NCBI GenBank assembly: GCA_963714375.1
Contig: CAVQOG010000003.1
Span: 297,457 to 361,456 of the forward strand
DNA length: 64,000 bases
Direction of reading: 5' to 3'
From: an uncultured Acidimicrobiia bacterium
GTDB taxonomy: Bacteria > Actinomycetota > Acidimicrobiia > Spongiisociales > UBA5794
Shown here: positions 5,048-58,634 of the stretch, piece by piece
Layout of the letters: every line of letters begins with the position of its first letter
How positions within the stretch are numbered: the first letter of the stretch is position 1
Program-made: the position numbers and the translations under genes
The notes under the pieces: generated by a model
Database searches by the model: none
What the model saw: only the letters and a program-made list of their open reading frames with translations
Told to the model about the DNA's origin: nothing

Positions 5048-6322
5048 ATGTCCTTTGCCGGGGCGCTAATGAATGTCGACACAATCGCGTATCTGGTGAT
5101 CCTTGCCGTCTGCACAGCAGGATCGGGATTCTTCTCCGGTTCCGAAACCGCACTGATCGGGATCTCACGCGAGCGAGTGCACCAACTCGCAGAGGACAGC
5201 GACTCTGGACGAAAGCTCGAGCGGCTCATCGCAGAGCCGGAGCGGATGCTGTCAACACTTCTCGTCGCAAACAACACGGTGAACGTTCTATCGGCGTCTG
5301 TTGCCACCATCCTGTTCATTTCACTGGTTGGCGATGCATGGGGACCGTGGGTTGCAACCATCGTCATGACTGCGGTGCTGCTCGTCTTCGGAGAGATCAC
5401 TCCCAAGACGATCGCCGCCCGGCATCCCGAGAGTTTCTCTCTCAGAGTCGCGCCAACGATCTGGAACCTGTCGATCTTCCTCGCACCCATTGCGAGCTTC
5501 TTTTCGGCCATCACACGGTGGCTCCTCCGTCTGTTGCGCGTGAGTGGGACGGCGTCAGGTGATGGAGTCACCGACGATGACATCCGGGCACTCGCTGCCC
5601 TTGGCGAACGCGGCGGACACATTGAGGAGGCAGAGCGGGAGATCATCGATGCTCTCTTCCATCTCGACGATCGATCTGTCCGCGAAGTGATGACACCACG
5701 CCTCGACATCGTGACCCTTTCGACGCCGCTGACGTCCGACGACATTCGGGAGGTGGTATCGGCAACAGGGCATTCGCGCTTTCCTGTGACGAGCGGTGAG
5801 CTCGACGACCTCGTGGGTGTCATCCACGTCAAGGATTTGCTTCAGAACCCCGACTATGAGAACTCGGACGACCTCACCAGCTTGATCCGAACACCGAACT
5901 ATGTGCCGGAGACGATGTCGATCCTCGACACGCTCTCGGCCATGCGATCGAGCCGGTACGGCATGGCAGTCGTTGTCGACGAGCACGGCGGTGTTGAGGG
6001 CGTCGTGACCATAAAGGATCTGGTAGCGGAGCTCGTGGGCGAGCTTCAGGACGAGTACGACCCTCGGACACCATCAATCGTCCAGATCGGGCCAGCATTG
6101 TGGATCGCGGACGGGAAGCTCGACATCGACGATCTTGAAGACGTTCTTGATATCGCGGATCTCAGCGTTGGTCCCTATTCGACCGTCGGTGGATACATCA
6201 TGGCGATGTACGGACGGGTACCGGCAGATGGCGATCAGATGTCGGAAAACGGGATCCGATACACGGTCCTTTCCATGGACAGGCAGCGAGTTGATCGGGT
6301 CAGAGTCGAGAGACTCGACTGA
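5048..6322 (+). CDS. HlyC/CorC (CNNM) family transporter, DUF21-CBS-CorC_HlyC
   Basis: N-terminal DUF21 four-TM domain, paired CBS domains, C-terminal CorC/HlyC transporter-associated domain. Confidence 0.8.
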   Translation: MSFAGALMNVDTIAYLVILAVCTAGSGFFSGSETALIGISRERVHQLAEDSDSGRKLERLIAEPERMLSTLLVANNTVNVLSASVATILFISLVGDAWGPWVATIVMTAVLLVFGEITPKTIAARHPESFSLRVAPTIWNLSIFLAPIASFFSAITRWLLRLLRVSGTASGDGVTDDDIRALAALGERGGHIEEAEREIIDALFHLDDRSVREVMTPRLDIVTLSTPLTSDDIREVVSATGHSRFPVTSGELDDLVGVIHVKDLLQNPDYENSDDLTSLIRTPNYVPETMSILDTLSAMRSSRYGMAVVVDEHGGVEGVVTIKDLVAELVGELQDEYDPRTPSIVQIGPALWIADGKLDIDDLEDVLDIADLSVGPYSTVGGYIMAMYGRVPADGDQMSENGIRYTVLSMDRQRVDRVRVERLD

Positions 6323-6537: not shown

Positions 6538-7326
6538 TTACTTGCCGGTGAAGGTTGGCTTTCGCTTTTCGATGAAGGCCGAGATGCCTTCGTAGAAGTC
6601 TTGTGTTTCGCCGGCAGCGAGGATCGACTTGGCTTCGGCAGACATTTGCTCAACCGGGCTGTTCGCATGCGTCGACTGCAGGAGCTTCCTTGCTCGGACG
6701 TACGCCTGGGTTGGTCCCTTGGCCAAACGGCCTGCGAGCTTTGCGACCGCTTCGTCGAATCTGTCAGCTTCTGCGACCTCATTGACGAGTCCAAGGGCGA
6801 GTGCCTCGTTGGCATCGAGCAGACGGTTCGTCAGGATCAACTCCATCGCAACCCTGCTCCCCACCAGCCTCGGAAGGAAGAAGGTGCTCGACCCGTCGGG
6901 TGATACACCGATGCCCGTGTACGCCATGGTGAACACGGCTGCATCTGACGCAACCGCAAGGTCGGTCGCAAGTGCCACACCCATACCTGCTCCCGCGACG
7001 ACACCGTTGATGGCCGCGATCGTCGGGAACGGAAGCTCAAGCATTGTCTCGATGGCGCCGTGGACGGCGTCGAGAACCTGCTGCATCACGTCGTGGGGGT
7101 TGTCGCGGTTGTCGTAGAAGGACTGAACATCTCCCCCGGCACAGAATCCGCGACCGGTGCCGGTGAGCACGAGAACCCGGACCGCGGGATTTTCTCCGAG
7201 CTCGGTGAGCGCTTCGCCCAATGCCGTCGCCATTGGGATAGACAACGCGTTCATCGAATCGGGGGTATTGAGCCTCACCGTGGCGATGCCCCCGTCCTGC
7301 GATACAACGACCAGATCTTCAGACAA
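6538..7326 (-). CDS. enoyl-CoA hydratase/isomerase (crotonase) family protein
   Basis: GFCAGGD oxyanion-hole motif and crotonase-fold length of 262 aa. Confidence 0.85.
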   Translation of the reverse strand: MSEDLVVVSQDGGIATVRLNTPDSMNALSIPMATALGEALTELGENPAVRVLVLTGTGRGFCAGGDVQSFYDNRDNPHDVMQQVLDAVHGAIETMLELPFPTIAAINGVVAGAGMGVALATDLAVASDAAVFTMAYTGIGVSPDGSSTFFLPRLVGSRVAMELILTNRLLDANEALALGLVNEVAEADRFDEAVAKLAGRLAKGPTQAYVRARKLLQSTHANSPVEQMSAEAKSILAAGETQDFYEGISAFIEKRKPTFTGK

Positions 7327-7393
7327 CGCCTACTCCTTCTCTACTTGACCTTGCGCCCGCACGACGATACAACGCCGATCACCAGCTGGTATC

Positions 7394-7443
7394 ACGTACC
7401 CAGGGTTCGGTTGGACAAATATGTCCACTGGAGCCCACAGAAC
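7394..7443. repeat. family-A GC-rich palindromic intergenic repeat
   Basis: CACGTACCCAGGGTTCGGTTGGACAAATATGTCCACTGGAGCCCACAGAAC. Inner inverted repeat TTGGACA/TGTCCA. Located between the asd stop and the echA start. Confidence 0.6.
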
Positions 7444-7457
7444 ACCGACCGATGGTC

Positions 7458-8499: not shown

Positions 8500-9720
8500 T
8501 CAGGAAGTCGGTCCGTCGAGTCCAAGACCAGTATGGAGAGCCTTCACCGCTTCGCCAACTCGATCGGCGCGCACAACACACGAGATCCGGATCGTGGACG
8601 TCGAGATCATCTCGATGTTGATTCCCTCGTCGGACAGGAGGCGGAACATCCGCGCAGCGACACCCGACTCGGTCTTCATGCCTATCCCGACAACGGAGAT
8701 CCTGGCAATCTCGCTGTCAACAGTGACCCCGCCAGCTCCGACTGACGCTGCAACCACTTCGGATTCCTTCGTAGCTACGTCGACCGAGGCACCGGGGACC
8801 GTGAAAGAAATGTCAGTTGATCCGTCATGGCTGACGTTCTGAACGATCATGTCAACATTGACACCCGCCACAGCAAGGGCCTCGAACAAGCTCGCGGCAA
8901 CGCCTGGCGTATCGGGAACCCGGTAGACCGTAACCTTTGCCTCGGTTTCGTCGTGTGCGATACCGCGAACGACTGCCTGCTCCATCGTTTCCTCCTTGAC
9001 CCATGTGCCTTCGCCGTCGTGGAACGACGATCTGACATGGATGGGAATATTGAATCGTCTCCCAAACTCGACGGAGCGTGGCATCAAGACGCCAGCCCCA
9101 GCGGATGCGAGTTCGAGCATCTCCTCATAGTTGATCTCGTCGATCTTCGTTGCGCCTTCGACCAGTCTCGGGTCAGCTGTGAAGACGCCGTCGACATCCG
9201 TGTATATCTCACACCGGTCGGCTTCGAGTGCCGCCGCCAGCGCAACGGCGGTTGCGTCTGATCCCCCGCGACCAAGAGTTGTGACATCCCGCGAATCGGG
9301 ATCAACCCCTTGGAATCCCGCAACGATGACGACCTTTCCCTCATCGAGCGCTTCGCGGACGCGGTTCGCACGTATCTCAACGATCTCCGCTCGCCCGTGT
9401 CTGCCCGTTGTGAGAATCCCTGCTTGCGACCCGGTCAACGACGTAGCGGCAATACCAAGATCTTGTATGGCCATGGCAACAAGGGCCATCGTGACCCGCT
9501 CTCCGGCCGTCAGGAGCATGTCAAGCTCTCGTGGATGGGATCTGTCGGACACATCTGCAGCGAGTTCAAGCAGTTCATCGGTTCGGGTCCCCATGGCACT
9601 GACGACCGCCACAACTTCGTTACCCGAGGTAAAGGTGTCCACGATGCGTGCCGCCACATGTCTGATGCGGTCGGCATCGGCAACCGACGTGCCACCATAT
9701 TTCTGAATGACGAGGGCCAT
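8500..9720 (-). CDS. ask: aspartate kinase
   Basis: [13 protein letters not shown] start, amino-acid kinase fold, C-terminal tandem ACT domains. ask-asd operon arrangement. Confidence 0.9.
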
Positions 9721-18879: not shown

Positions 18880-19120
18880 AAGAATCGAGATCACGGGTGG
18901 CGCCGGTGCTCATCTTGCCGCTGCCATCGCCGCGGTGGTCGAGGCCATTGACCGCGAGGAGCAGGAAGCTTCGGCGACACGACCCAAACCGATCAGGAAC
19001 AGCCAGTGGGTTCAAGCCAGCCGGCCATTCGAACGGCAATCACCCATGACGTCAGTCGAATACGACCGCATGCCAGGCGGAACCGACGGCGACGCCGGCG
19101 AGATCAACCCGTTCACCTGA
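18872..19120 (+). CDS. small Ala-rich protein, translationally coupled (ATGGCTGA overlap)
   Basis: 82 aa. Its start overlaps the epimerase stop. Composition loosely resembles actinobacterial acyl-CoA carboxylase epsilon subunits. Confidence 0.3.
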   Translation: MAERIEITGGAGAHLAAAIAAVVEAIDREEQEASATRPKPIRNSQWVQASRPFERQSPMTSVEYDRMPGGTDGDAGEINPFT

Positions 19121-19205: not shown

Positions 19206-20163
19206 CTACAGAGGTGGCTCGCTCATGAGGTCTTGGAGCGACACTCGGCCAACGAGATAGGACTCGTTGTCAACGACCGGGATCAGGCTGTCCGGCTCAT
19301 GGGTCGCAAGCTCGATTGCATCGACGATGGTGTCGGTCAAATCAAAGAAAACGCCATCCTCCATGACATCGCGGATGGTGAGATCGGATCGTGCCTGTGT
19401 GAGTGCGCCGATGGCTGACGGTACCGAGCAGCTTTCCCCGTTCGGCAACAACGATGCCGGCCCCCTCCGAAAGCACCAGGGCATCAGCAACCAGCATGCG
19501 TGGCCCGAAGGCGATGGGCGGCCTCATGACCTGAAAGACGCGCCTCGGATGGTGTTCGACGACAATCGTTCCCGCCGATGCCTTCGCTTGTATCCGGGCA
19601 CCGGGACCAAAGAACCGTCGTTGAAACCACGACCCACCGGACGCGCCGACGACCAGAAGAGTCCCGTTTGGAAGCGCCTCAACCATGGATGCTGGACTGG
19701 AGGCTTGGACGATTCGAGTATCGAGCGCCGGTAGCTGAGCGCTGATTTGCTCAAGCACATCACGTGCCTGAGCAAGCTCGGTGGGATCGCTGTAGCCAAA
19801 CGTCGCCGACGCCGGAATACCGGCTGCCTCGGAGAGCCAGTTTGCAAGGACCGCCGCGAGGAGTGAATGCGGGCCGCCACCTACAGCAGCCACGATCGAC
19901 TGGGTACTGGCTCGATCGAAGTCATGGGGAACCGCTGTGCTGCAAAGATCAAGGGACGTCCGATTCGACACCACCAACAAACCTGCCCGTGCGTCAACGC
20001 ACGACGCAACAATGTTGGCCCCGGCCCTCGTGGCTGCACCACCAGTGAGGACCTCGGCGAGATCCCGTGCCTGATTTCCGCCAGCCCAGACCACCCTGCG
20101 ACTGCCGATCCTCGCTGGGTGGTCGCTCGCCGGGGACTCGTATGGGTCGTTGCTGTTAGCCAT
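19206..20163 (-). CDS. universal stress protein (UspA) domain fused to a CBS pair; frame disrupted near 19375-19420 in this assembly
   Basis: ORF 19342..20163 carries Usp (LLVVGASGGSW...TIVVEHHP) plus CBS1. CBS2 (TIRDVMEDGVFFDL...LVGRVSLQDL) continues in the +1 frame as ORF 19206..19490. Confidence 0.5.
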
Positions 20164-22431: not shown

Positions 22432-22483
22432 ACGCGTACCCAGGGCTCCATTGGACAAATATGTCGGCTGGAGCCCACAGAAC
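22432..22483. repeat. family-A GC-rich palindromic intergenic repeat
   Basis: ACGCGTACCCAGGGCTCCATTGGACAAATATGTCGGCTGGAGCCCACAGAAC. Sits exactly between the convergent stops of glpX and the glycosyltransferase. Confidence 0.6.
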
Positions 22484-22487
22484 AGAC

Positions 22488-25075: not shown

Positions 25076-25196
25076 GAATCCGATGACCGATTTCAGAAAT
25101 CAGATAACGGCTAACGGACAGCCGAGGACCGATTACCGATGACCGATACAGAAGTCGGTTATCGGATATCGGATGTCGGATATCGGACAGTCAGAG
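25076..25196. repeat. CCGAT/ATCGGAT microsatellite tract, with 7-nt unit repeated four times at 25160-25187
   Basis: CCGATGACCGATT...CCGATTACCGATGACCGATACAGAAGTCGGTTATCGGATATCGGATGTCGGATATCGGACAGTCAGAG. Lies between the recR stop and the ECF sigma start. Confidence 0.6.
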
Positions 25197-25786
25197 TTCT
25201 TGGCGGCCGGTGAGGGCTCGGCCGAGGGTGACTTCGTCTGCGTAGTCGAGATCGCCACCGACGGGAAGTCCGCTTGCGAGACGGGTCACCGTCACGCCAA
25301 GAGGCTTGAGGCGTCGTGAGATCATCATTGCGGTTGTGTCGCCCTCAAGGGTCGGATTCGTTGCGGCGATGACTTCGGTGATGCCTTCCAACCCCACCCG
25401 ATCAACCAGCTCCTTGATACGCAGATTCTCTTCATGAATGCCTGCAATCGGATTCACAGCGCCACCGAGCACGTGATAGCGGCCTCTGAATGACTGTGTC
25501 CGTTCGAGCACGGGGATGTCCTGTGCACGCTCAACGACGCAGATAACGGTTGTGTCGCGTCGGAGATCAGAACAGATCGAGCACTCCTGGTCTGCGGTGA
25601 CGTTGTAGCACCGGTTACACAGTCGAACGGATGACCGCATCTCGCTTATTGCATCTGCGAGACGTTGAGCGTCAGCTTCCTCGGCGTTGAGGAGATGGAA
25701 GGCAATCCGTTGCGCACTCTTCCGACCGACACCTGGCAGCCTCGCGAGTTCATCGATCAGCCGTTGGATGGGTGGCTCGAACATCA
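25191..25786 (-). CDS. recR: recombination protein RecR
   Basis: [26 protein letters not shown] helix-hairpin-helix, C4 zinc finger CNRC...CSIC, Toprim domain. Confidence 0.9.
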
Positions 25787-26111
25787 GCCGAGCATGCCAC
25801 CAAGGTCGAGCCCGGCCGCAGCTCCACCCATCGACGCTTCGGCATCGGCCTGCATCGCTGCGTAGGCCTGATTGACCGCAGCGACGACCAGATCGCTGAC
25901 CATGTCGGGGTCGTCGGGATCGAGCACCGTCGGGATCGAGATCCACGGAGAGCAGTTCGCCTGTTCCCTTCATGGTCGCCTTGACAACACCGCCACCGAC
26001 GGTGCCTTCATAGGTCTTGGCAGCAAGGGTCTCTTGTGCAGCCACCATCTGGGCCTGCATCTGTTGAGCCTGCTGCATGAGCTGTTGCATATCTTTTGGC
26101 ATTTTGGACAT
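25783..26111 (-). CDS. ybaB: nucleoid-associated protein YbaB/EbfC, frame disrupted by a tandem duplication at 25911-25945
   Basis: N-terminus [22 protein letters not shown]. Native C-terminus [25 protein letters not shown]...GGMLG* is recovered in another frame. The repeat is CGTCGGGATCGAG-cac-CGTCGGGATCGAG-atccac. After it the frame fuses into recR. Confidence 0.6.
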
Positions 26112-26136
26112 GGCGGCAGGGTAGCGAGACGCAGAC

Positions 26137-28041
26137 GTGCACCAACGCATCCCAGTCCGCGAAAGCGAACCGGCGCCGGTGTCCTTTGTGACACAGCAGC
26201 GGTCTACTGTTGAACAGATGCAATATCAGGCGCTCTATCGCAAGTATCGACCACAACGATTCGACGAGGTCATCGGGCAGGACCATGTCACCACGACCCT
26301 CGCAAGGGAGGTCGTTGACAGCAAGGTTGCCCACGCATACCTGCTTGCTGGGCCGAGAGGAACCGGGAAGACCACCACTGCCCGTCTGCTTGCCAAGTCA
26401 CTGAATTGTGCCAACCGCGCACCCGACGGCGAACCAGACAACGAGTGTCCATCGTGTATCGGGATCACCGAGGGGTCTTCTCTCGATGTGATAGAGCTCG
26501 ACGCGGCATCCCACAACAAGGTTGAGGACATTCGCGAGATTCGCACGAACGCAGGGACGGTTGCCGCGACCGCCGGATCACATCGCGTCTACATCCTTGA
26601 TGAAGCCCACATGCTGACTCGCGCAGCTGGCAACGCCCTCTTGAAGATCCTTGAGGAACCTCCAGCGCATGTGATCTTCGTGCTCGCAACCACCGAGCCA
26701 TACAAGCTCCTCGACACCATCCGATCTCGCGCTCAACGCTTCGATTTCCACCCGGTCGCGACCGAAACCCTCATCGACTATCTCGCAGACATCGCCGTGA
26801 GAGAAGGGTTCACGGCAGACCGTGCAGCCCTTGAAGCTGTCACCTCCCACTCTGGTGGTTCCGTTCGCGACGCGATGAGCCTGTTGGAGCAGGTGGCAGC
26901 GCTCGGTGCGGGAACCGTCTCTTCAAGTGGTGTGTCCACGGCGTTGGGACTCGCAGACCGGGACGTGTTCGCAGAACTAGTCAAAGTGATCGCCGATGGT
27001 GATGCCGCTGCAGCGCTCGCACTCGTTGCGCGACTCGCATCCCAGGGAGCAGACCTCCGAAGGTTTGTGGCAGATGGTCTCGCCCATTTCCGAGGCATCT
27101 TCCTCGCCCAATACGCCTCGAACATCGACGAAGTCGTTGATGCATCCACCGAAACAATCGCCGAATGGAAGCAACAGGCGACGGTTCTGTCCAGCGTGGA
27201 GGTACTCCGGACCATCGACGAGCTTTCGACGGCTCTTCTCCAACTTCGAGATGGCCGCGAAGAGCGCCTCGTCGTGGAGATCTCACTCATCAGACTGACA
27301 CGGCCAGAGACGGTTGAATCGGTCGATGGCCTCCACGCCAGGATCGGGAGAATGGAACGAGAGCTCACTGCTTTCAGCTCACAGCTCACAGCTTCAGAGA
27401 GCGAAAACCAACAGCCTGTCCCCCCTTCAGGGGGGACGGATCCGACGGAGTCGGATCAGGGGGGCGTGCGAGCCCGCGAGCCCCGTCCGGAGCAGATCTC
27501 AGAAGCCACTACCCAACAGCCCGTCCCCCCTCCAGGGGGGACGGATCCGACGGAGTCGGATCAGGGGGGCGTGCGAGCCCGCGAGCCCCGTCCGGAGCGA
27601 AAGTCAGAAGTCAGAAGTCAGAAGTCAGAAGTCGGCCAACCAGACATCACCCTCGATTCCTTTCTCACGGCCTGGCCCGCGATCATGGCTGAGATCCGTG
27701 AGACCGTCGGGCCTCGCCGCCAAGCGCTGTTGCGAGAGGCATCGCCGCGCGACCTCCAAGGCTCAACCGTCGTGTTTGAGGTTGCTTCTCATATGCATTT
27801 CCATCTTGAACAGCTCAAAGCGGACAGCGGGATTGCAGATGCCATCGCGGATGCAACCGATCAGCGCCTCGGTTCACGACTGTCCGTGTCGTTCAGATCT
27901 GCAGACGCGCCTGCTCCGGAGCCGGACCCGGAACTGGACCTCGTGCCGGACAAGGATGACCTCCTGGACGCAGACGACGACGAGGCTGTCGATCCGGTTG
28001 CCGTCGTGGCAAACATCTTCGACGGCCAGATCATCGAATAG
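26137..28041 (+). CDS. dnaX: DNA polymerase III subunits gamma/tau
   Basis: AAA+ clamp-loader motifs GPRGTGKTT and ILDEAHML with SRAQRF sensor. Start may be ATG at 26218 ([15 protein letters not shown]). Divergent from ybaB. Confidence 0.85.
27409..27633. repeat. in-frame 105-bp tandem duplication plus (AGTCAGA)x4.5 tract inside dnaX
   Basis: Units 27409-27513 and 27514-27600 encode QQPVPP(S/P)[21 protein letters not shown] twice. Each unit contains a GTCCCCCCT..AGGGGGGAC hairpin and GAGCCCGCGAGCCCCGTCC. Heptamers at 27602-27629. Confidence 0.7.
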
Positions 28042-34732: not shown

Positions 34733-34786
34733 CGCGTACCCGGGGCTCCATTGGACATATGTGTCCCCTTCAGCCCTGGGTACGCG
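34733..34786. repeat. family-A repeat, full palindromic copy
   Basis: CGCGTACCCGGGGCTCCATTGGACATATGTGTCCCCTTCAGCCCTGGGTACGCG. Outer 15-nt arms are perfect inverted repeats. Confidence 0.65.
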
Positions 34787-35214: not shown

Positions 35215-35220
35215 AAATTC

Positions 35221-35284
35221 AGCTTACAGCTCACGCCCTACAGCTCGCGTCCGGCTGAAAGCTGAAAGCTGTCCGCTGTAAGCT
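35221..35284. promoter_or_regulatory. inverted repeat AGCTTACAGC...GCTGTAAGCT enclosing CAGCTCA/GCTGAAA heptamer repeats, in a divergent promoter
   Basis: Between the membrane-protein start (35214, minus strand) and the dodecin start (35291, plus strand). Confidence 0.4.
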
Positions 35285-44930: not shown

Positions 44931-45040
44931 GAGTCGGACGTCAGACGACAGACGTCGGAGCCCCCCTGCGCCTCGCCATGCTCGGCGCGTCCCCCGCAAG
45001 CGGGAGGACGGGGAGAAGAAGTGAAGCCAGAAGTCAGATG
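44931..45040. repeat. family-B GC-rich repeat (GACGTCA heptamers, C6 run, CCCGCAAGCGGGAGGACGGGG hairpin, CAGAAGTCAGA)
   Basis: Shares GTCGGAG, homopolymer run, CCCGCAAGC and CAGAAGTC modules with the copies at 27409-27633, 34032-34058 and 56311-56395. Confidence 0.5.
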
Positions 45041-54866: not shown

Positions 54867-56301
54867 GGTGCAGGACAGGTCGTGGAGTGTCGAACGATAC
54901 GAGCGCCCCGCAACCCTCGATGCCGCACTCGACCTGGTGAATACGCACCGGTCAGACGCCCGAATCCTCGCAGGGGGCACGGATCTTCTCCTCGAGATGC
55001 AGCGAAAGGTTCGCTCCGTGGATGTCCTTGTCGATCTTTCGGCCATTGACGGGCTTGGGGACATCATTCTCGACTCCGGCACGGTGTCTCTTGGGCCACT
55101 CGTGACCCACAAGAATGTTGTTGCGTCCGATCTGATCCGCTCGGTCGGCCTCCCGCTTGCCCAAGCATCCCATGAGGTCGGTTCGGCACAGCTTCGGAAC
55201 CGGGCAACGGTTGTTGGGAACATCGTCACCGCTTCACCCGCGAACGACACCATTTCAGCGCTGCTTGCGCTGGACGCCTCCCTCACCCTCGCTTCCGTCG
55301 ACGGTCAGCGCACCGTTGCACTCTCGGACTTCTACGAGGGGGTTCGCAGGACGGCGATGACGGACAACGAGATCGTGACAGGCATTTCATTTCCTGCGAT
55401 GACTGCAGCAGAAGCCGGAATTTTCGCAAAGGTTGGCCTCCGCTCCGCGCAAGCGATCTCCGTCGTCCACGGATCCATTCTCTTGTCACGAGACAATGGC
55501 GTCGTAACTTCGGCTCGAATTTCACTGGGAAGCGTCGCACCAGTGGTCGTACTAGCCGAAGCCGCTGAAATGCTCGTCGGAAACAACCTGTCGGACGAGA
55601 TGATCACTCAATGCGCTTTGGCGTGTGCAGCCGAAGTCAGACCGATCTCGGACGGAAGGGCAACCGCCGAATACCGCACTGCAATGGTTGAAGTCGCAGT
55701 TGCACGCATGCTTCGGTCACTGAAGGACGGGACCGAGGCGACCGAGTGGCCAGCGCGGGTCACGACACTCGACAACAGCAGCGTCAAACACCAATACGAC
55801 CCTGTCTCCGTCGGATCCGCAGATGGCGTGACCATGGTGATCAACGGCGTCATCACCACGGGCCCCGGGCGGTGCAACACCACGCTCCTCGATTGGATCA
55901 GAGAGAATGCCACCGACGCGGACGGTTTGGGGCTAACCGGAACGAAGGAGGGATGCGCCGAGGGCGAGTGTGGCGCATGCACCGTCCACATGGATGGAAG
56001 AGCAGTGCTCGCCTGCCTCGTCGCCGCACCGGCAGCTCATGGAAGTGATGTCACCACCATCGAAGGTCTCACATCTGCACCGGACCGAACCATGCAGGAG
56101 GCACTCGTCGACTTCGGAGCAGTCCAGTGCGGGTATTGCACACCAGGGTTCGTCATGTGCGCCTCATCGTTGTTGAGTGAGCATGAGGACCTCTCGACAC
56201 ACGAGATTCGTGACGGTCTCAGCGGCAACATCTGTCGCTGCACCGGGTACGACTCAATCGTCGCAGCGGTCCAGATTTCGGACGTGGAGCGGCGCCGATG
56301 A
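54859..56301 (+). CDS. molybdenum-hydroxylase FAD-binding subunit fused C-terminally to [2Fe-2S] subunit (CoxM-CoxS order)
   Basis: N-terminal FAD-binding PCMH domain (ILAGGTDLL), CO-dehydrogenase flavoprotein C-terminal domain, then CAEGECGACTV...CGYCTPGF...CRCTGY. Confidence 0.85.
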   Translation: MHEVQDRSWSVERYERPATLDAALDLVNTHRSDARILAGGTDLLLEMQRKVRSVDVLVDLSAIDGLGDIILDSGTVSLGPLVTHKNVVASDLIRSVGLPLAQASHEVGSAQLRNRATVVGNIVTASPANDTISALLALDASLTLASVDGQRTVALSDFYEGVRRTAMTDNEIVTGISFPAMTAAEAGIFAKVGLRSAQAISVVHGSILLSRDNGVVTSARISLGSVAPVVVLAEAAEMLVGNNLSDEMITQCALACAAEVRPISDGRATAEYRTAMVEVAVARMLRSLKDGTEATEWPARVTTLDNSSVKHQYDPVSVGSADGVTMVINGVITTGPGRCNTTLLDWIRENATDADGLGLTGTKEGCAEGECGACTVHMDGRAVLACLVAAPAAHGSDVTTIEGLTSAPDRTMQEALVDFGAVQCGYCTPGFVMCASSLLSEHEDLSTHEIRDGLSGNICRCTGYDSIVAAVQISDVERRR

Positions 56302-56310
56302 GATTTCGAA

Positions 56311-56395
56311 ACACACACGTCGGAGTCTCGAGCCCGCAAGCCCCGTCCTCCAGTAGGGACGGGCGAGCAGAGCGGGCCAGGGGGGCACACTCGAT
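56311..56395. repeat. family-B GC-rich repeat
   Basis: ACGTCGGAGTCTCGAGCCCGCAAGCCCCGTCCTCCAGTAGGGACGGG...GGGGGG. Intergenic between the two XDH subunit genes. Confidence 0.5.
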
Positions 56396-58634
56396 ATGAC
56401 GATTGGGACCAATGCTCGAAGGATCGACTCGTACGACAAGGTCACGGGGGCTGCGCTCTATCCGGGAGACCTACCGGCCGAAAACGCGCTCTCTGCGAAA
56501 GTTGTCTTCTCGAATCGACCGCACGCCAGAATGATCTCGATGGACACGGCTCCGGCCCTCGCGGTTGATGGCGTCGTCGAGGTTGTTACTGCCGCTGACA
56601 TTCCACTCAACGAATACGGCCTAACCATGCCCGATCAGCCGGTCCTCATCGGTGTAGATGGAACGGGAACATCCCATGTCCCATCCAACATTTCAAGATG
56701 GGAAGCCGATCAGGTCGCCATTGTCATCGCGGAGACCGGGCATGCGGCGCTCGCCGGGGCGAAGGCCCTCGCAATCGAGTGGGAGGACCTTCCACTCGTA
56801 CCAGATCTAACAGCTGCGCGGACCGATGAGATCCTCGTCCACCCAGAAAACCCTGGCAAAACGAACGCTTACTACACGCTGAGGATCCGGAAGGGCGACA
56901 TGAAATCCGGCTGGGACGCAGCCGACATCGTGGTCGAGGGCACCTATCACCTCCCCCATCAGGAGCACGCTTATCTCCAACCTGAGGCGGGCCTGGCGTA
57001 CGTCGAAGACGACGGAGTCGTCACCGTCCAGATCGCGGGTCAATGGACCCATGAGGACCGCGAACAGATCGCACATGCCCTTGAGCTGCCCGAGCAGATG
57101 GTCCGCGTTGTCTACCCGGCAATCGGTGGAGCGTTTGGCGGTCGAGAGGACATGAGCCTCCAAATTGTGTTGGCCGCTGCGGCCCTCAAGCTTCACAGAA
57201 GAGGCATCAATCGTCCCGTGCGTACCGTGTGGAACCGTGAAGAGAGCATCGTCGGGCACCACAAGCGGCATCGCGCTCGAGATCACGACGCGGTGGGGGG
57301 CCAGGAGCGACGGACGCATTGTGGCGGTAGAGGCCGAGGCTTTTCTCGATGCCGGTGCCTACAACTACACGTCGAACAAGGTACTTGCCAACCTCCACCT
57401 CACGTTGACGGGCCCCTACAAGATCGACAACGCTCACATCGACTCCAGCGCCGTTTACACACATTCGGTTCCCGGCGGAGCATTCCGCGGCTTCGGCGGT
57501 CCTCAGGGCTCGTTCGTATCCGAGGGGCAGATGAACAAGGTGGCAGACGCATTGGGTATGGATCCAATCGAGATCCGAAGAGTCAACCTGCTCCACGACG
57601 GGGATGATTTCATCACACAGAGGCCGATGCCCGAAGGGGTGAGCATTGAGACTGTCATCGACGAACTCTCCGAGGCATCTGAGTGGAATCAACAACACCC
57701 GATCGATGTAGCCGTGGCGGCGATAAAGACGCTTGGTTCCAATCATTCGGCGATCAGAACCGGTAGAGGGATGGCGTGTGCACTCAAGAATGTCGGGTTT
57801 TCAATGGGCTTTCCCGAACGATGCGAGGCGACAGTCACCCTATATGGAGATGACAAGGTCGAATCTGCCCACCTCTCTCACGCTGGAGCCGATGTCGGTC
57901 AGGGCGCACACACTGCGTTTCTCCAGATGACAGCAGAGGCGGTTGATCTTCCCTTCGAGAAGGTGACGGGATCGTTCTCCGATACCGCAACAAGCGGGGA
58001 CTCCGGTTCGGCGTCGGCGTCGCGGCTTACGTTCATGGCCGGGAACTCCATCCAAGGCGCGACCGAAGAGGCCATCAAGGCGTGGATCGACGGGGACCGA
58101 CCAGCGCTCGGCCATTTCCGCTATGTCCCGCCACCGACCGATGCCATCGACCCAGAAACTGGCGAGGGAAATCCCAACGTCACCCTCGGGTATGTGGCTG
58201 AAATCGTCGAGGTCGCGGTCGACATCGAGACGGGCCACGTGCGCGTCGGGACGGTCTACTGCGCGGTCGACGTCGGAAAGGCCATCAACCCAACACTCAT
58301 TCGCGGACAGGTTGAAGGAGCCATCGTCCAGGCCCACGGCTACGCGCTTTCAGAACACCTGCGTGTCAGCAACGGGCGGACCGAGAACCCAACCTTCTCC
58401 GGATATCTGGTGCCCGGCAGCATGGATACGCCGGATCGCATTGAGACGGTCATCGTCGAGGTTGCCGATCCAGCCGGGCCATGGGGGGCGCGCGGCATGG
58501 CGGAAATGCCATTCATCCCGTATGCACCGGCTGTCGTTGCAGCACTTCACGACGCAACCGGTGTGTGGTTCGACGAGATTCCACTGACGCCTGACCGTGT
58601 CCTCGCAAAACTCAGAGCAGCCGGCGGAGCATAA
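56396..58634 (+). CDS. molybdenum-hydroxylase large (Mo-pterin) subunit; frame disrupted near 57270-57295
   Basis: ORF 56396..57607 is homologous up to ESIVGHHKRH. The -1 frame ORF 57165..58634 is homologous from ALEITTRWGARSDG onward. Together about 745 aa. Confidence 0.75.

Follow-up and report, generated by a model that had tools for sequence, protein, structure and literature searches.

An in-frame, tandemly duplicated element in the DnaX linker of an uncultured Acidimicrobiia bacterium, probably a translated copy of a dispersed palindromic repeat

We analysed a stretch of 64,000 nucleotides (nt) from an uncultured Acidimicrobiia bacterium of the phylum Actinomycetota (contig CAVQOG010000003.1 of assembly GCA_963714375.1; hereafter, the window), which contains dnaX, the gene for the tau subunit of DNA polymerase III. 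Positions 27362-27636, within dnaX, most probably stem from a dispersed and structured palindromic repeat, of which a copy is translated and duplicated in tandem here, in the flexible tether that joins the clamp-loader part of the DnaX protein to its C-terminal tau domain. The core of this repeat is a hairpin, H1 (GTCCCCCC/GGGGGGAC), followed by a variable second hairpin (H2), a run of G residues and a GC-rich arm, and it is bracketed by tracts of heptanucleotide repeats.

The duplicated unit in dnaX

Alignments of homologues fix the conserved start of DnaX as MQYQALY at position 26218, the mechanically called open reading frame (ORF) opening at a GTG at 26137. On the ORF 26137-28041, Pfam recognizes DNA_pol3_delta2, the ATPase lid, gamma3 (domain III, aa 262-391) and DnaX_C (aa 501-587), and the insert, which occupies aa 425-499 between domain III and DnaX_C, therefore sits in the DnaX linker. 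A preliminary description of this DNA, made from the letters alone, had proposed that a 105-bp unit is present twice in tandem in the tau linker, and three lines of evidence confirm it: the Pfam placement, Tandem Repeats Finder (TRF; 27408-27598, period 105, 1.8 copies, 97 per cent matches) and a repeat search (101-nt copies at 27408 and 27513, 93 per cent identical). The 79-nt cores of the two units differ at two positions (97.5 per cent identity). The exact hairpin and the 19-mer singled out in that description were also found where it had placed them, far above chance expectation: GTCCCCCCTNNAGGGGGGAC occurs exactly twice in the window (27418 and 27523; shuffles expect 0), and GAGCCCGCGAGCCCCGTCC occurs at 27470 and 27575, and at 56330 with one mismatch (0.06 expected). 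The tail of unit 1 consists of two degenerate heptamers (CAGATCT CAGAAGC CA..), and the tail of unit 2 enters a perfect heptamer tract; since the former is a degenerate version of the latter, we regard the array as two full units with diverged tails (Table 1).

Each unit folds as three adjacent hairpins, namely H1 (GTCCCCCC-TTCA/TCCA-GGGGGGAC, with a stem of 8-9 bp and a loop of 4 nt), H2 (GATCCGAC-GGA-GTCGGATC) and H3 (GGGGC.GUGCG-AGCC-CGCG.GCCCC), and the folding of the whole insert is more stable than that of dinucleotide shuffles (z = -4.2). The sequence is also compatible with translation. The unit length of 105 nt corresponds to 35 codons, the interval 27362-27636 is free of stops in all three sense frames (each antisense frame has 3-6 stops), and the dnaX reading frame and DnaX_C remain intact across the insert. 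In the frame that reads VPPSGGT, the loop of H2 has TAG in two intergenic copies described below (loci L019 and L026) and GAG in the dnaX copies. In an AlphaFold model of DnaX that is weak overall (mean predicted local distance difference test [pLDDT] score of 56, built from 16 sequences), residues 420-501 have pLDDT values of 26-33 and no secondary structure, and are located beside a confident C-terminal domain.

Table 1. Positions of dnaX, the parts of its insert and related copies in the window.
Feature	Position	Strand	Evidence or sequence
dnaX (DNA polymerase III tau)	26218..28041	+	ORF list, Pfam, homologue alignments fixing start
Upstream degenerate heptamer tract	27362..27395	+	(AGCTCAC/AGCTTTC)n, read as ..AFSSQLTAS..; TRF, lag-7 scan
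Unit 1 (105 nt / 35 aa)	27408..27512	+	TRF, repeat search, folds, R1 62.1 bits, Whalefall-1 32.0 bits
Unit 1, H1	27418-27437	+	GTCCCCCC-TTCA-GGGGGGAC
Unit 1, H2	27439-27457	+	GATCCGAC-GGA-GTCGGATC
Unit 1, G-run	27459-27464	+	
Unit 1, H3	27461-27484	+	
Unit 2 (tandem copy)	27513..27617	+	TRF, repeat search, R1 60.2 bits, Whalefall-1 29.5 bits
Unit 2, H1	27523-27542	+	loop TCCA
Unit 2, H2	27544-27562	+	
Unit 2, H3	27566-27589	+	
Heptamer microsatellite, (AAGTCAG)x4.7	27598..27636	+	TRF 27601-27633, 100 per cent regular; lag-7 scan
First stop (TGA) in the net +1 nt frame	27690..27692	+	three-frame translation
Intergenic copy	44960..45012	-	R1 25.8 bits, E 6e-4, outside R1 training set
Intergenic copy	56342..56386	+	R1 40.5 bits, E 4e-7, outside R1 training set

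A dispersed family with intergenic copies

An intergenic copy in the genome of the sister species (L026; CGTCCCCCCTTCAGGGGGGACGGATTCGACGTAGTCGGATCAGGGGGGCGTGCGAGCCCGCGAGCCCCGTC), itself partly duplicated in tandem, is identical to the dnaX copy of that species at 68 of 72 positions (local score, 122; highest score among shuffles, 33). It lies just past the stop codon of a small ORF with a C-terminus that resembles ribosomal protein L33. In a scan for H1 across one genome per species (pattern CGTCCCCCC-N2-9-GGGGGGACG), at least 119 stretches matched, and the 80 loci listed among them include six in the sister genome, UBA5794, the rest being mostly chance hairpins in unrelated GC-rich genomes; the window's own genome is not among the 80. 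Each of the six UBA5794 copies is flanked by long ORFs, and most of them follow a gene directly on its 3' side. A metagenome scan with a 21-mer of H1 yielded 39 loci, whose copies share a common plan of H1, variable H2, (C)AGGGGGG and a GC-rich arm, CGAGCCYGCGAGC. The H2-H3 25-mer GTCGGATCAGGGGGGSGTGCGAGCC had no match in the metagenome scan, the collection evidently being without the sample of the Joint Genome Institute contig that carries it.

The three closing base pairs of H2 covary over 28 copies, with 28 double-change cells compared to 11.7 +/- 1.9 in shuffles (none of 500 shuffles reaches 28); 89 per cent of the cells are paired, and controls with slid positions collapse. Covariation was assessed for H2 alone, the copies having been selected by their exact H1 sequence. 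A covariance model built from 28 copies (R1), with search filters off, finds four significant copies in the 64 kb of the window, including both dnaX units (Table 1), and more than 10 copies in about 70 kb of selected UBA5794 loci. The copy at 56342 is situated between ORFs that end at 56301 and start at 56396, and has the core of H1, H2 and G-run. Before this core stands CGAGCCCGCAAGCCCCGTCC, which agrees with the H3 arm of dnaX at 19 of 20 positions. The copy at 44960 has period-7 tracts on both sides (44933-44954 and ~45013 to 45038), and positions 45023-45038 match the dnaX heptamer tract at 15 of 16 bases. The preliminary description had assigned the dnaX modules to the intergenic intervals 44931-45040 and 56311-56395; GTCCCCCC/GGGGGGAC is not present there verbatim, the hairpins being the diverged versions GTCCCCCGC..GCGGGAGGAC and CGTCC..GGGACG, but R1 aligns both intervals over the H1-H2-G-run core. 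Taken together, the L026 match, the R1 matches and the intergenic location of all six UBA5794 copies bear out the proposal that an element of intergenic type resides in frame in an essential gene.

dnaX in related genomes

The closest DnaX homolog (P0002, locus L001), from the sister species represented by the metagenome-assembled genome (MAG) UBA5794, is 94 per cent identical over aligned residues. It has a single unit, preceded by a perfect (TCAGAAG)x2.5 tract and followed by a degenerate one. The linker of P0002 is shared by the DnaX sequences of two other assemblies of this species, P0121 (contig of 2.7 Mb) and P0122 (contig of 289,830 bp). Because the sister species has one unit at the same site, the duplication is specific to the window's genome. 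In the next clade (P0003 of L002 and P0004 of L003; 81-82 per cent aligned identity), linkers are of similar length, and their best local matches to the element, which fall at H1 and at the corresponding position, are weak (equalled by 212 of 1000 shuffles for L002 and by 38 of 1000 for L003), with no excess folding (z of 0.1-0.3) and no significant R1 match. The structured element, present in the window and the sister species and without signal in the next clade, thus belongs to the lineage of these two. The preliminary description had left room for the segment being ordinary linker sequence conserved among relatives; the comparison speaks against this, the linkers of the relatives at 81-82 per cent identity having no significant similarity to the element (marginal in L003).

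DnaX proteins of ~70 per cent identity have long, unrelated linkers with no recognizable unit, and a V(P/A)PSG motif at the equivalent position. In a more distant relative (L162; DnaX 68 per cent identical), a family copy (5763-5811, minus strand; R1 43.9 bits) is located in the intergenic region 5' of dnaX (start at 6001), upstream of the gene and not inside it.

Copies inside other genes and conservation of nucleotides

Coding copies were counted only if flanked by Pfam domains on both sides, an open-frame screen being too noisy in GC-rich DNA. Such copies occur in other organisms, in linkers between the domains of proteins unrelated to DnaX. In an E2 acyltransferase, the core is found between the E3_binding and catalytic domains (...IEAFIGE-VPPSGGTGERERSAFPASQGGLRVSEP-...); in a Ser/Thr kinase, between a membrane segment and a PEGA domain, in antisense orientation and reading VPPGGGT; and in a fusion of a UvrD-type helicase with a PD-(D/E)XK nuclease, between helicase and nuclease. 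Two orthologues of an HTH_17-like protein also carry the core, the match to the Pfam family being weak (20.3 bits against a cut-off of 27 bits). The coding cases in sense orientation share the frame used in DnaX (VPPSGGT...QGG.R..EP). E2 orthologues of 76-97 per cent identity retain the insert, and those of 72-74 per cent identity have an empty site.

Nucleotide identity at the element is high. Between the window and L001, the 79-nt dnaX core is 94.9 per cent identical, compared to 86.9 and 87.7 per cent for the domains, which are 66-69 per cent identical at third codon positions; only 0.2 per cent of 78-nt windows in dnaX match the conservation of the core. The core is therefore conserved above the dnaX domains in its nucleotides, which implies that the DNA or RNA itself is conserved or homogenized. 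Across four E2 orthologues, third-position identity is 0.72-0.90 in the element, 0.40-0.77 in the catalytic and lipoyl domains and 0.2-0.4 in the linker next to it. When the 65-aa translation of the insert was used in a peptide search, no candidate shared words with it, and an exhaustive phmmer search of 1.84 billion representative proteins with the 70-aa insert yielded no match at E <= 0.001, so that the translated element is not detectable as a protein family. Because the peptide searches found no relatives, recurrence in coding sequence is argued from DNA matches.

H2 is found in long and short versions among the E2 genes (L150, L164, L165 and L166), and the E2 gene of L164 carries an extra hairpin, GGGAACGCCGGGCGTTCC, read as TPGVPF. 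One linker may also hold several tandem or decayed copies of the element. The linker of the Ser/Thr kinase gene (L142, 2261-2548) has at least two H1 copies together with other repeated GC-rich hairpins, and at L135 (~384-480) a decayed copy, VPPSGVTDEPT, is found beside an intact one.

Heptamer tracts and the reading frame

The preliminary description had noted a 7-nt microsatellite after the duplication, which is indeed present as (AAGTCAG)x4.7, and had missed a second tract just before unit 1, which TRF reports as (AGCTCAC)x4.6 at 27362-27393. The heptamer type of this upstream tract recurs in intergenic tracts at 35218-35234 (blastn-short) and, in L001, at 19429-19454. When the window was scanned at lags 4-12 (12 of 14 matches required), lag 7 gave seven tracts, lag 9 gave four and all other lags gave none. 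Five of the seven lag-7 tracts are intergenic (25127, 25154, 34035, 39590 and 44933); the remaining two border the dnaX units. In the sister locus L001, 21.7 kb contain seven period-7 tracts, and the more distant L002 has none. Within 200 nt of an element, the density of tracts of period 7 or 8 is 3 to 10 times that found elsewhere (small counts).

A heptamer tract encodes the same 7-aa period whichever frame is read. If one heptamer is gained, or if the net change is +1 nt for another reason, the frame ends at the TGA at 27690, 19 codons on, which would leave domains I-III without DnaX_C. Loss of one heptamer leaves the frame open to 28223, with an aberrant tail of 197 aa, and changes of three units stay in frame, adding or removing KSEVRSQ. 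The expectation in the preliminary description that slippage truncates tau thus applies to the gain of a heptamer, but not to its loss. No variation in linker length is seen among three assemblies of the sister species. The heptamer tracts and G-runs make the window's dnaX liable to apparent frameshifts in assemblies.

Dispersed heptanucleotide tandem repeats located mainly between genes are familiar from cyanobacteria as short tandemly repeated repetitive (STRR) sequences. The tracts described here resemble STRRs in their 7-nt period, which is the dominant short period in the window, and differ from them in heptamer sequence, in phylum and in flanking hairpin elements, with two of the tracts being translated. 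STRR fingerprinting is used in PMC5088731.

Some heptamer tracts form inverted pairs, with (CCGATNA)n facing (TCGGNTA)n, in the window at 25127-25189 and in L001 at 7326-7425 and 8876-9004. At an orthologous site upstream of recR, the length of such a pair differs greatly between the two species, and L001 carries a 100-nt (CCGATGA/CCGATGC)n array. In other metagenomic organisms, elements are flanked by other microsatellites (L014, 4330-4560; L125, 1-60), which comprise CAGTTAT-type heptamers and an 8-nt AGCCAAGG tract.

Comparison with known repeats and RNA motifs

Rickettsia palindromic elements (RPEs) located inside genes were reportedly described by Ogata and colleagues in 2000. As in such a system, the dnaX element is an in-frame palindrome whose host frame is intact, and in E2 there are orthologues with an empty site; we infer the translation of these copies. 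The element also resembles RPEs and repetitive extragenic palindromes (REPs) in being a short palindrome from a family with intergenic copies and in-frame translated ones, in forming a dimer, and in its hosts, which are dnaX here and the UvrD-nuclease, E2 and kinase genes elsewhere. The likeness to RPEs is one of behaviour.

REPs tagged by GTAG or CGTC are mostly intergenic and 3' of genes, with some translated, in-frame copies within ORFs. These are often dimers or clusters encoding 20-80 aa, and genes of replication and repair, among them dnaE, uvrA/B, recB and UvrD, are notably common hosts (Di Nocera et al. 2013, PMC3733652). In the CGTC family, to which the Rickettsia elements RPE-4 and RPE-6 belong, the tag is unpaired, stems open with A-T pairs and there is a CCA tail (PMC3733652). 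H1, with its 8-9-bp stem and 4-nt loop, corresponds to the 20-40-bp stem-loop palindrome of a REP unit. Its copies mostly start with CGTC or TGTC, but the GTC pairs with GAC and is thus no free tag, and unlike CGTC REPs the element has a stem of G+C only and no CCA tail. Since the tag is absent, we describe the element as working like an intragenic REP or RPE and do not file it among them: the label 'REP-like' given in the preliminary description is apt for the behaviour, but not for membership in the published REP super-families, which the tag defines. Two further differences are the composite nature of the dnaX unit, with three hairpins and heptamer tracts, and its host phylum, Actinomycetota (Acidimicrobiia), which the 2013 survey does not mention (PMC3733652). 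We found no earlier report of translated palindromic repeats inside genes in Actinomycetota, and nothing specific in the literature on tau-linker repeats in Actinobacteria and on STRRs.

The sole Rfam family matching the dnaX units is Whalefall-1 (RF01762), with 32.0 and 29.5 bits (E of 2e-4 and 1e-3 on the whole window) and an alignment over the full length of the model (positions 1-56). Other family copies match it as well, and every copy tested, in ~290 kb of family-bearing loci, scores below the gathering cut-off of 37 bits (best, 32.0). The two adjacent hairpins with covariation that characterize the motif are seen in the cmscan alignment and in the closing pairs of H2. Shared features are a 7-8-bp hairpin with a 4-nt loop, GAC-GA, a second hairpin of 8 bp and UCAGGG. 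Whalefall-1 was described from whale-fall metagenomes, its only known source, as a probable non-coding RNA that stands on its own (Weinberg et al. 2010, PMC2864571), and was published neither as a dispersed repeat nor as lying inside genes (PMC2864571).

Origin of the insert and alternative explanations

We hypothesize that a family copy entered the linker in a common ancestor of the window's genome and UBA5794, either by non-autonomous transposition or by recombination with an intergenic copy, both of which are possible. In an essential gene only an in-frame, stop-free version could have been fixed, and a 35-aa peptide of Pro, Gly, Ser and charged residues would merely lengthen a disordered tether and would be tolerated. 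The later duplication in the window's genome may have involved the short CCAAC(A/C)AG repeats at the borders of the unit, through slippage or unequal exchange between them. The heptamer tracts would grow and shrink, with selection on tau retaining only net changes divisible by three, and the high nucleotide conservation could result from gene conversion by other copies or from selection on the hairpins. A regulatory role in dnaX need not be assumed.

Several observations weigh against this scenario. Neither terminal inverted repeats nor a target-site duplication, the marks of a miniature inverted-repeat transposable element (MITE), were seen by eye in ~50 aligned flanks, and no transposase was identified, no search for one having been made on the window or the loci. 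Recurrence in coding sequence amounts to about five cases among some 50 DNA matches, and the duplication and the heptamer count come from one assembly of the window's species. There is no empty site among the close DnaX relatives, and the L003 linker weakly resembles H1 at the matching position (p ~0.04; p ~0.2 for L002). Because of this weak likeness in L002 and L003 and of V(P/A)PSG in distant DnaX proteins, the insert may, on the sequences compared, be of older origin, or may have been captured at a site where a similar sequence was already present.

The same V(P/A)PSG motif, and the great variation of tau linkers in length and sequence among homologues, would fit ordinary evolution of a low-complexity linker by local slippage, with a likeness to intergenic repeats that is due to chance composition. 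We consider this explanation extremely unlikely: the 72-nt match of 94 per cent to the intergenic copy in the sister genome is far beyond any shuffle, R1 finds copies on which it was not trained, H2 covaries, and the core is present in other genes that have empty-site orthologues. It is also very unlikely that assembly of this MAG produced the second unit, the heptamer count or both as artefacts, the true gene having one unit, as in UBA5794. This protein is known from a single assembly, repeats are error-prone in MAGs, and the neighbouring ybaB has a 1-nt frameshift relative to the sister genome; however, the units differ at two core positions and in their tails, the junction keeps the frame so that the ORF is intact through DnaX_C, and a 105-bp tandem is below typical read lengths.

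A different possibility is that the hairpins have a function in dnaX, by pausing or recoding translation after domain III to give a gamma-like product, or by acting on mRNA stability or co-translational folding; the nucleotide conservation would then be due to that function. Recoding of dnaX occurs directly after domain III, by a -1 frameshift with a stem-loop in Escherichia coli and by transcriptional slippage in Thermus. The window's dnaX is similar in the position within the gene, in a stable downstream structure (three strong hairpins per unit) and in a short -1 frame tail, as the -1 frame, which has no stop within the insert, ends at 27690, ahead of DnaX_C; moreover, both units have C CCC CCU in the proper phase, and conservation of synonymous sites exceeds that of the domains in dnaX and E2. 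The gene differs from the recoded ones in having no A-run and no conserved slippery site upstream of the hairpins: C CCC CCU lies within the 5' arm of H1 rather than upstream of a stimulator, the sister species has C CUC CCU, and L002 lacks the TGA of the -1 frame. A search of dnaX for intrinsic terminators gave no terminator-like site. Most copies of the element are intergenic, and others occupy unrelated genes in both orientations, so that its presence does not call for a role specific to dnaX; we regard a function of the hairpins in this gene as improbable. As to a programmed -1 frameshift signal in particular, there is no conserved X XXY YYZ heptamer 5-9 nt upstream of a structure, and we judge such a signal unlikely.

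Beyond the translated-repeat origin that we favour, a broader proposal can be offered only tentatively and is, in our estimation, rather unlikely to hold: in Acidimicrobiia and their relatives, the Whalefall-1-like core may be a structured mobile module compatible with translation, and not a small RNA standing on its own. It would have inserted repeatedly into interdomain linkers (of DnaX, E2 acyltransferase, Ser/Thr kinase, UvrD-nuclease and HTH proteins) and be kept there at the nucleotide level more strictly than the catalytic domains of the host. If so, the hairpins would act inside coding sequence, for example by pausing translation between domains, or on the mRNA or DNA, and would not be junk that the host tolerates.

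Implications

A translated-repeat origin of the dnaX insert would extend to Actinomycetota the phenomenon known from RPEs, in which selfish palindromic DNA is read as protein in essential replication genes. Whalefall-1, so far an orphan motif of Rfam, would probably be identified as belonging to a dispersed repeat. In two independent genes, dnaX and E2, an element in a disordered linker shows a conservation of synonymous sites that equals or exceeds that of the catalytic domains; either essential genes are within the reach of concerted evolution, or the hairpins of linkers are selected. Annotation pipelines and screens for RNA motifs will misread copies inside genes.

Additional observations

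The frameshift in ybaB (ebfC; ~25935-25960, minus strand) is a 1-nt insertion relative to the sister genome, in the direct repeat CTCGATCCCGAC..CTCGATCCCGAC, and places the N-terminal 60 aa and the C-terminal half of the protein in different frames. The mechanical ORF 25191..26150 consequently comprises the N-terminal part of YbaB, an Arg-rich out-of-frame stretch and RecR (319 aa in total). The frameshift could be a sequencing error, a pseudogene or a case of recoding.

A second and unrelated intergenic palindromic family, CGTACCCAGGG..TTGGACAnATATGTCC..CCCTGGGTACG, is found in the window at 7395-7444, 22433-22484, 34735-34786 and ~45047, and in L001 at ~18930-18985.

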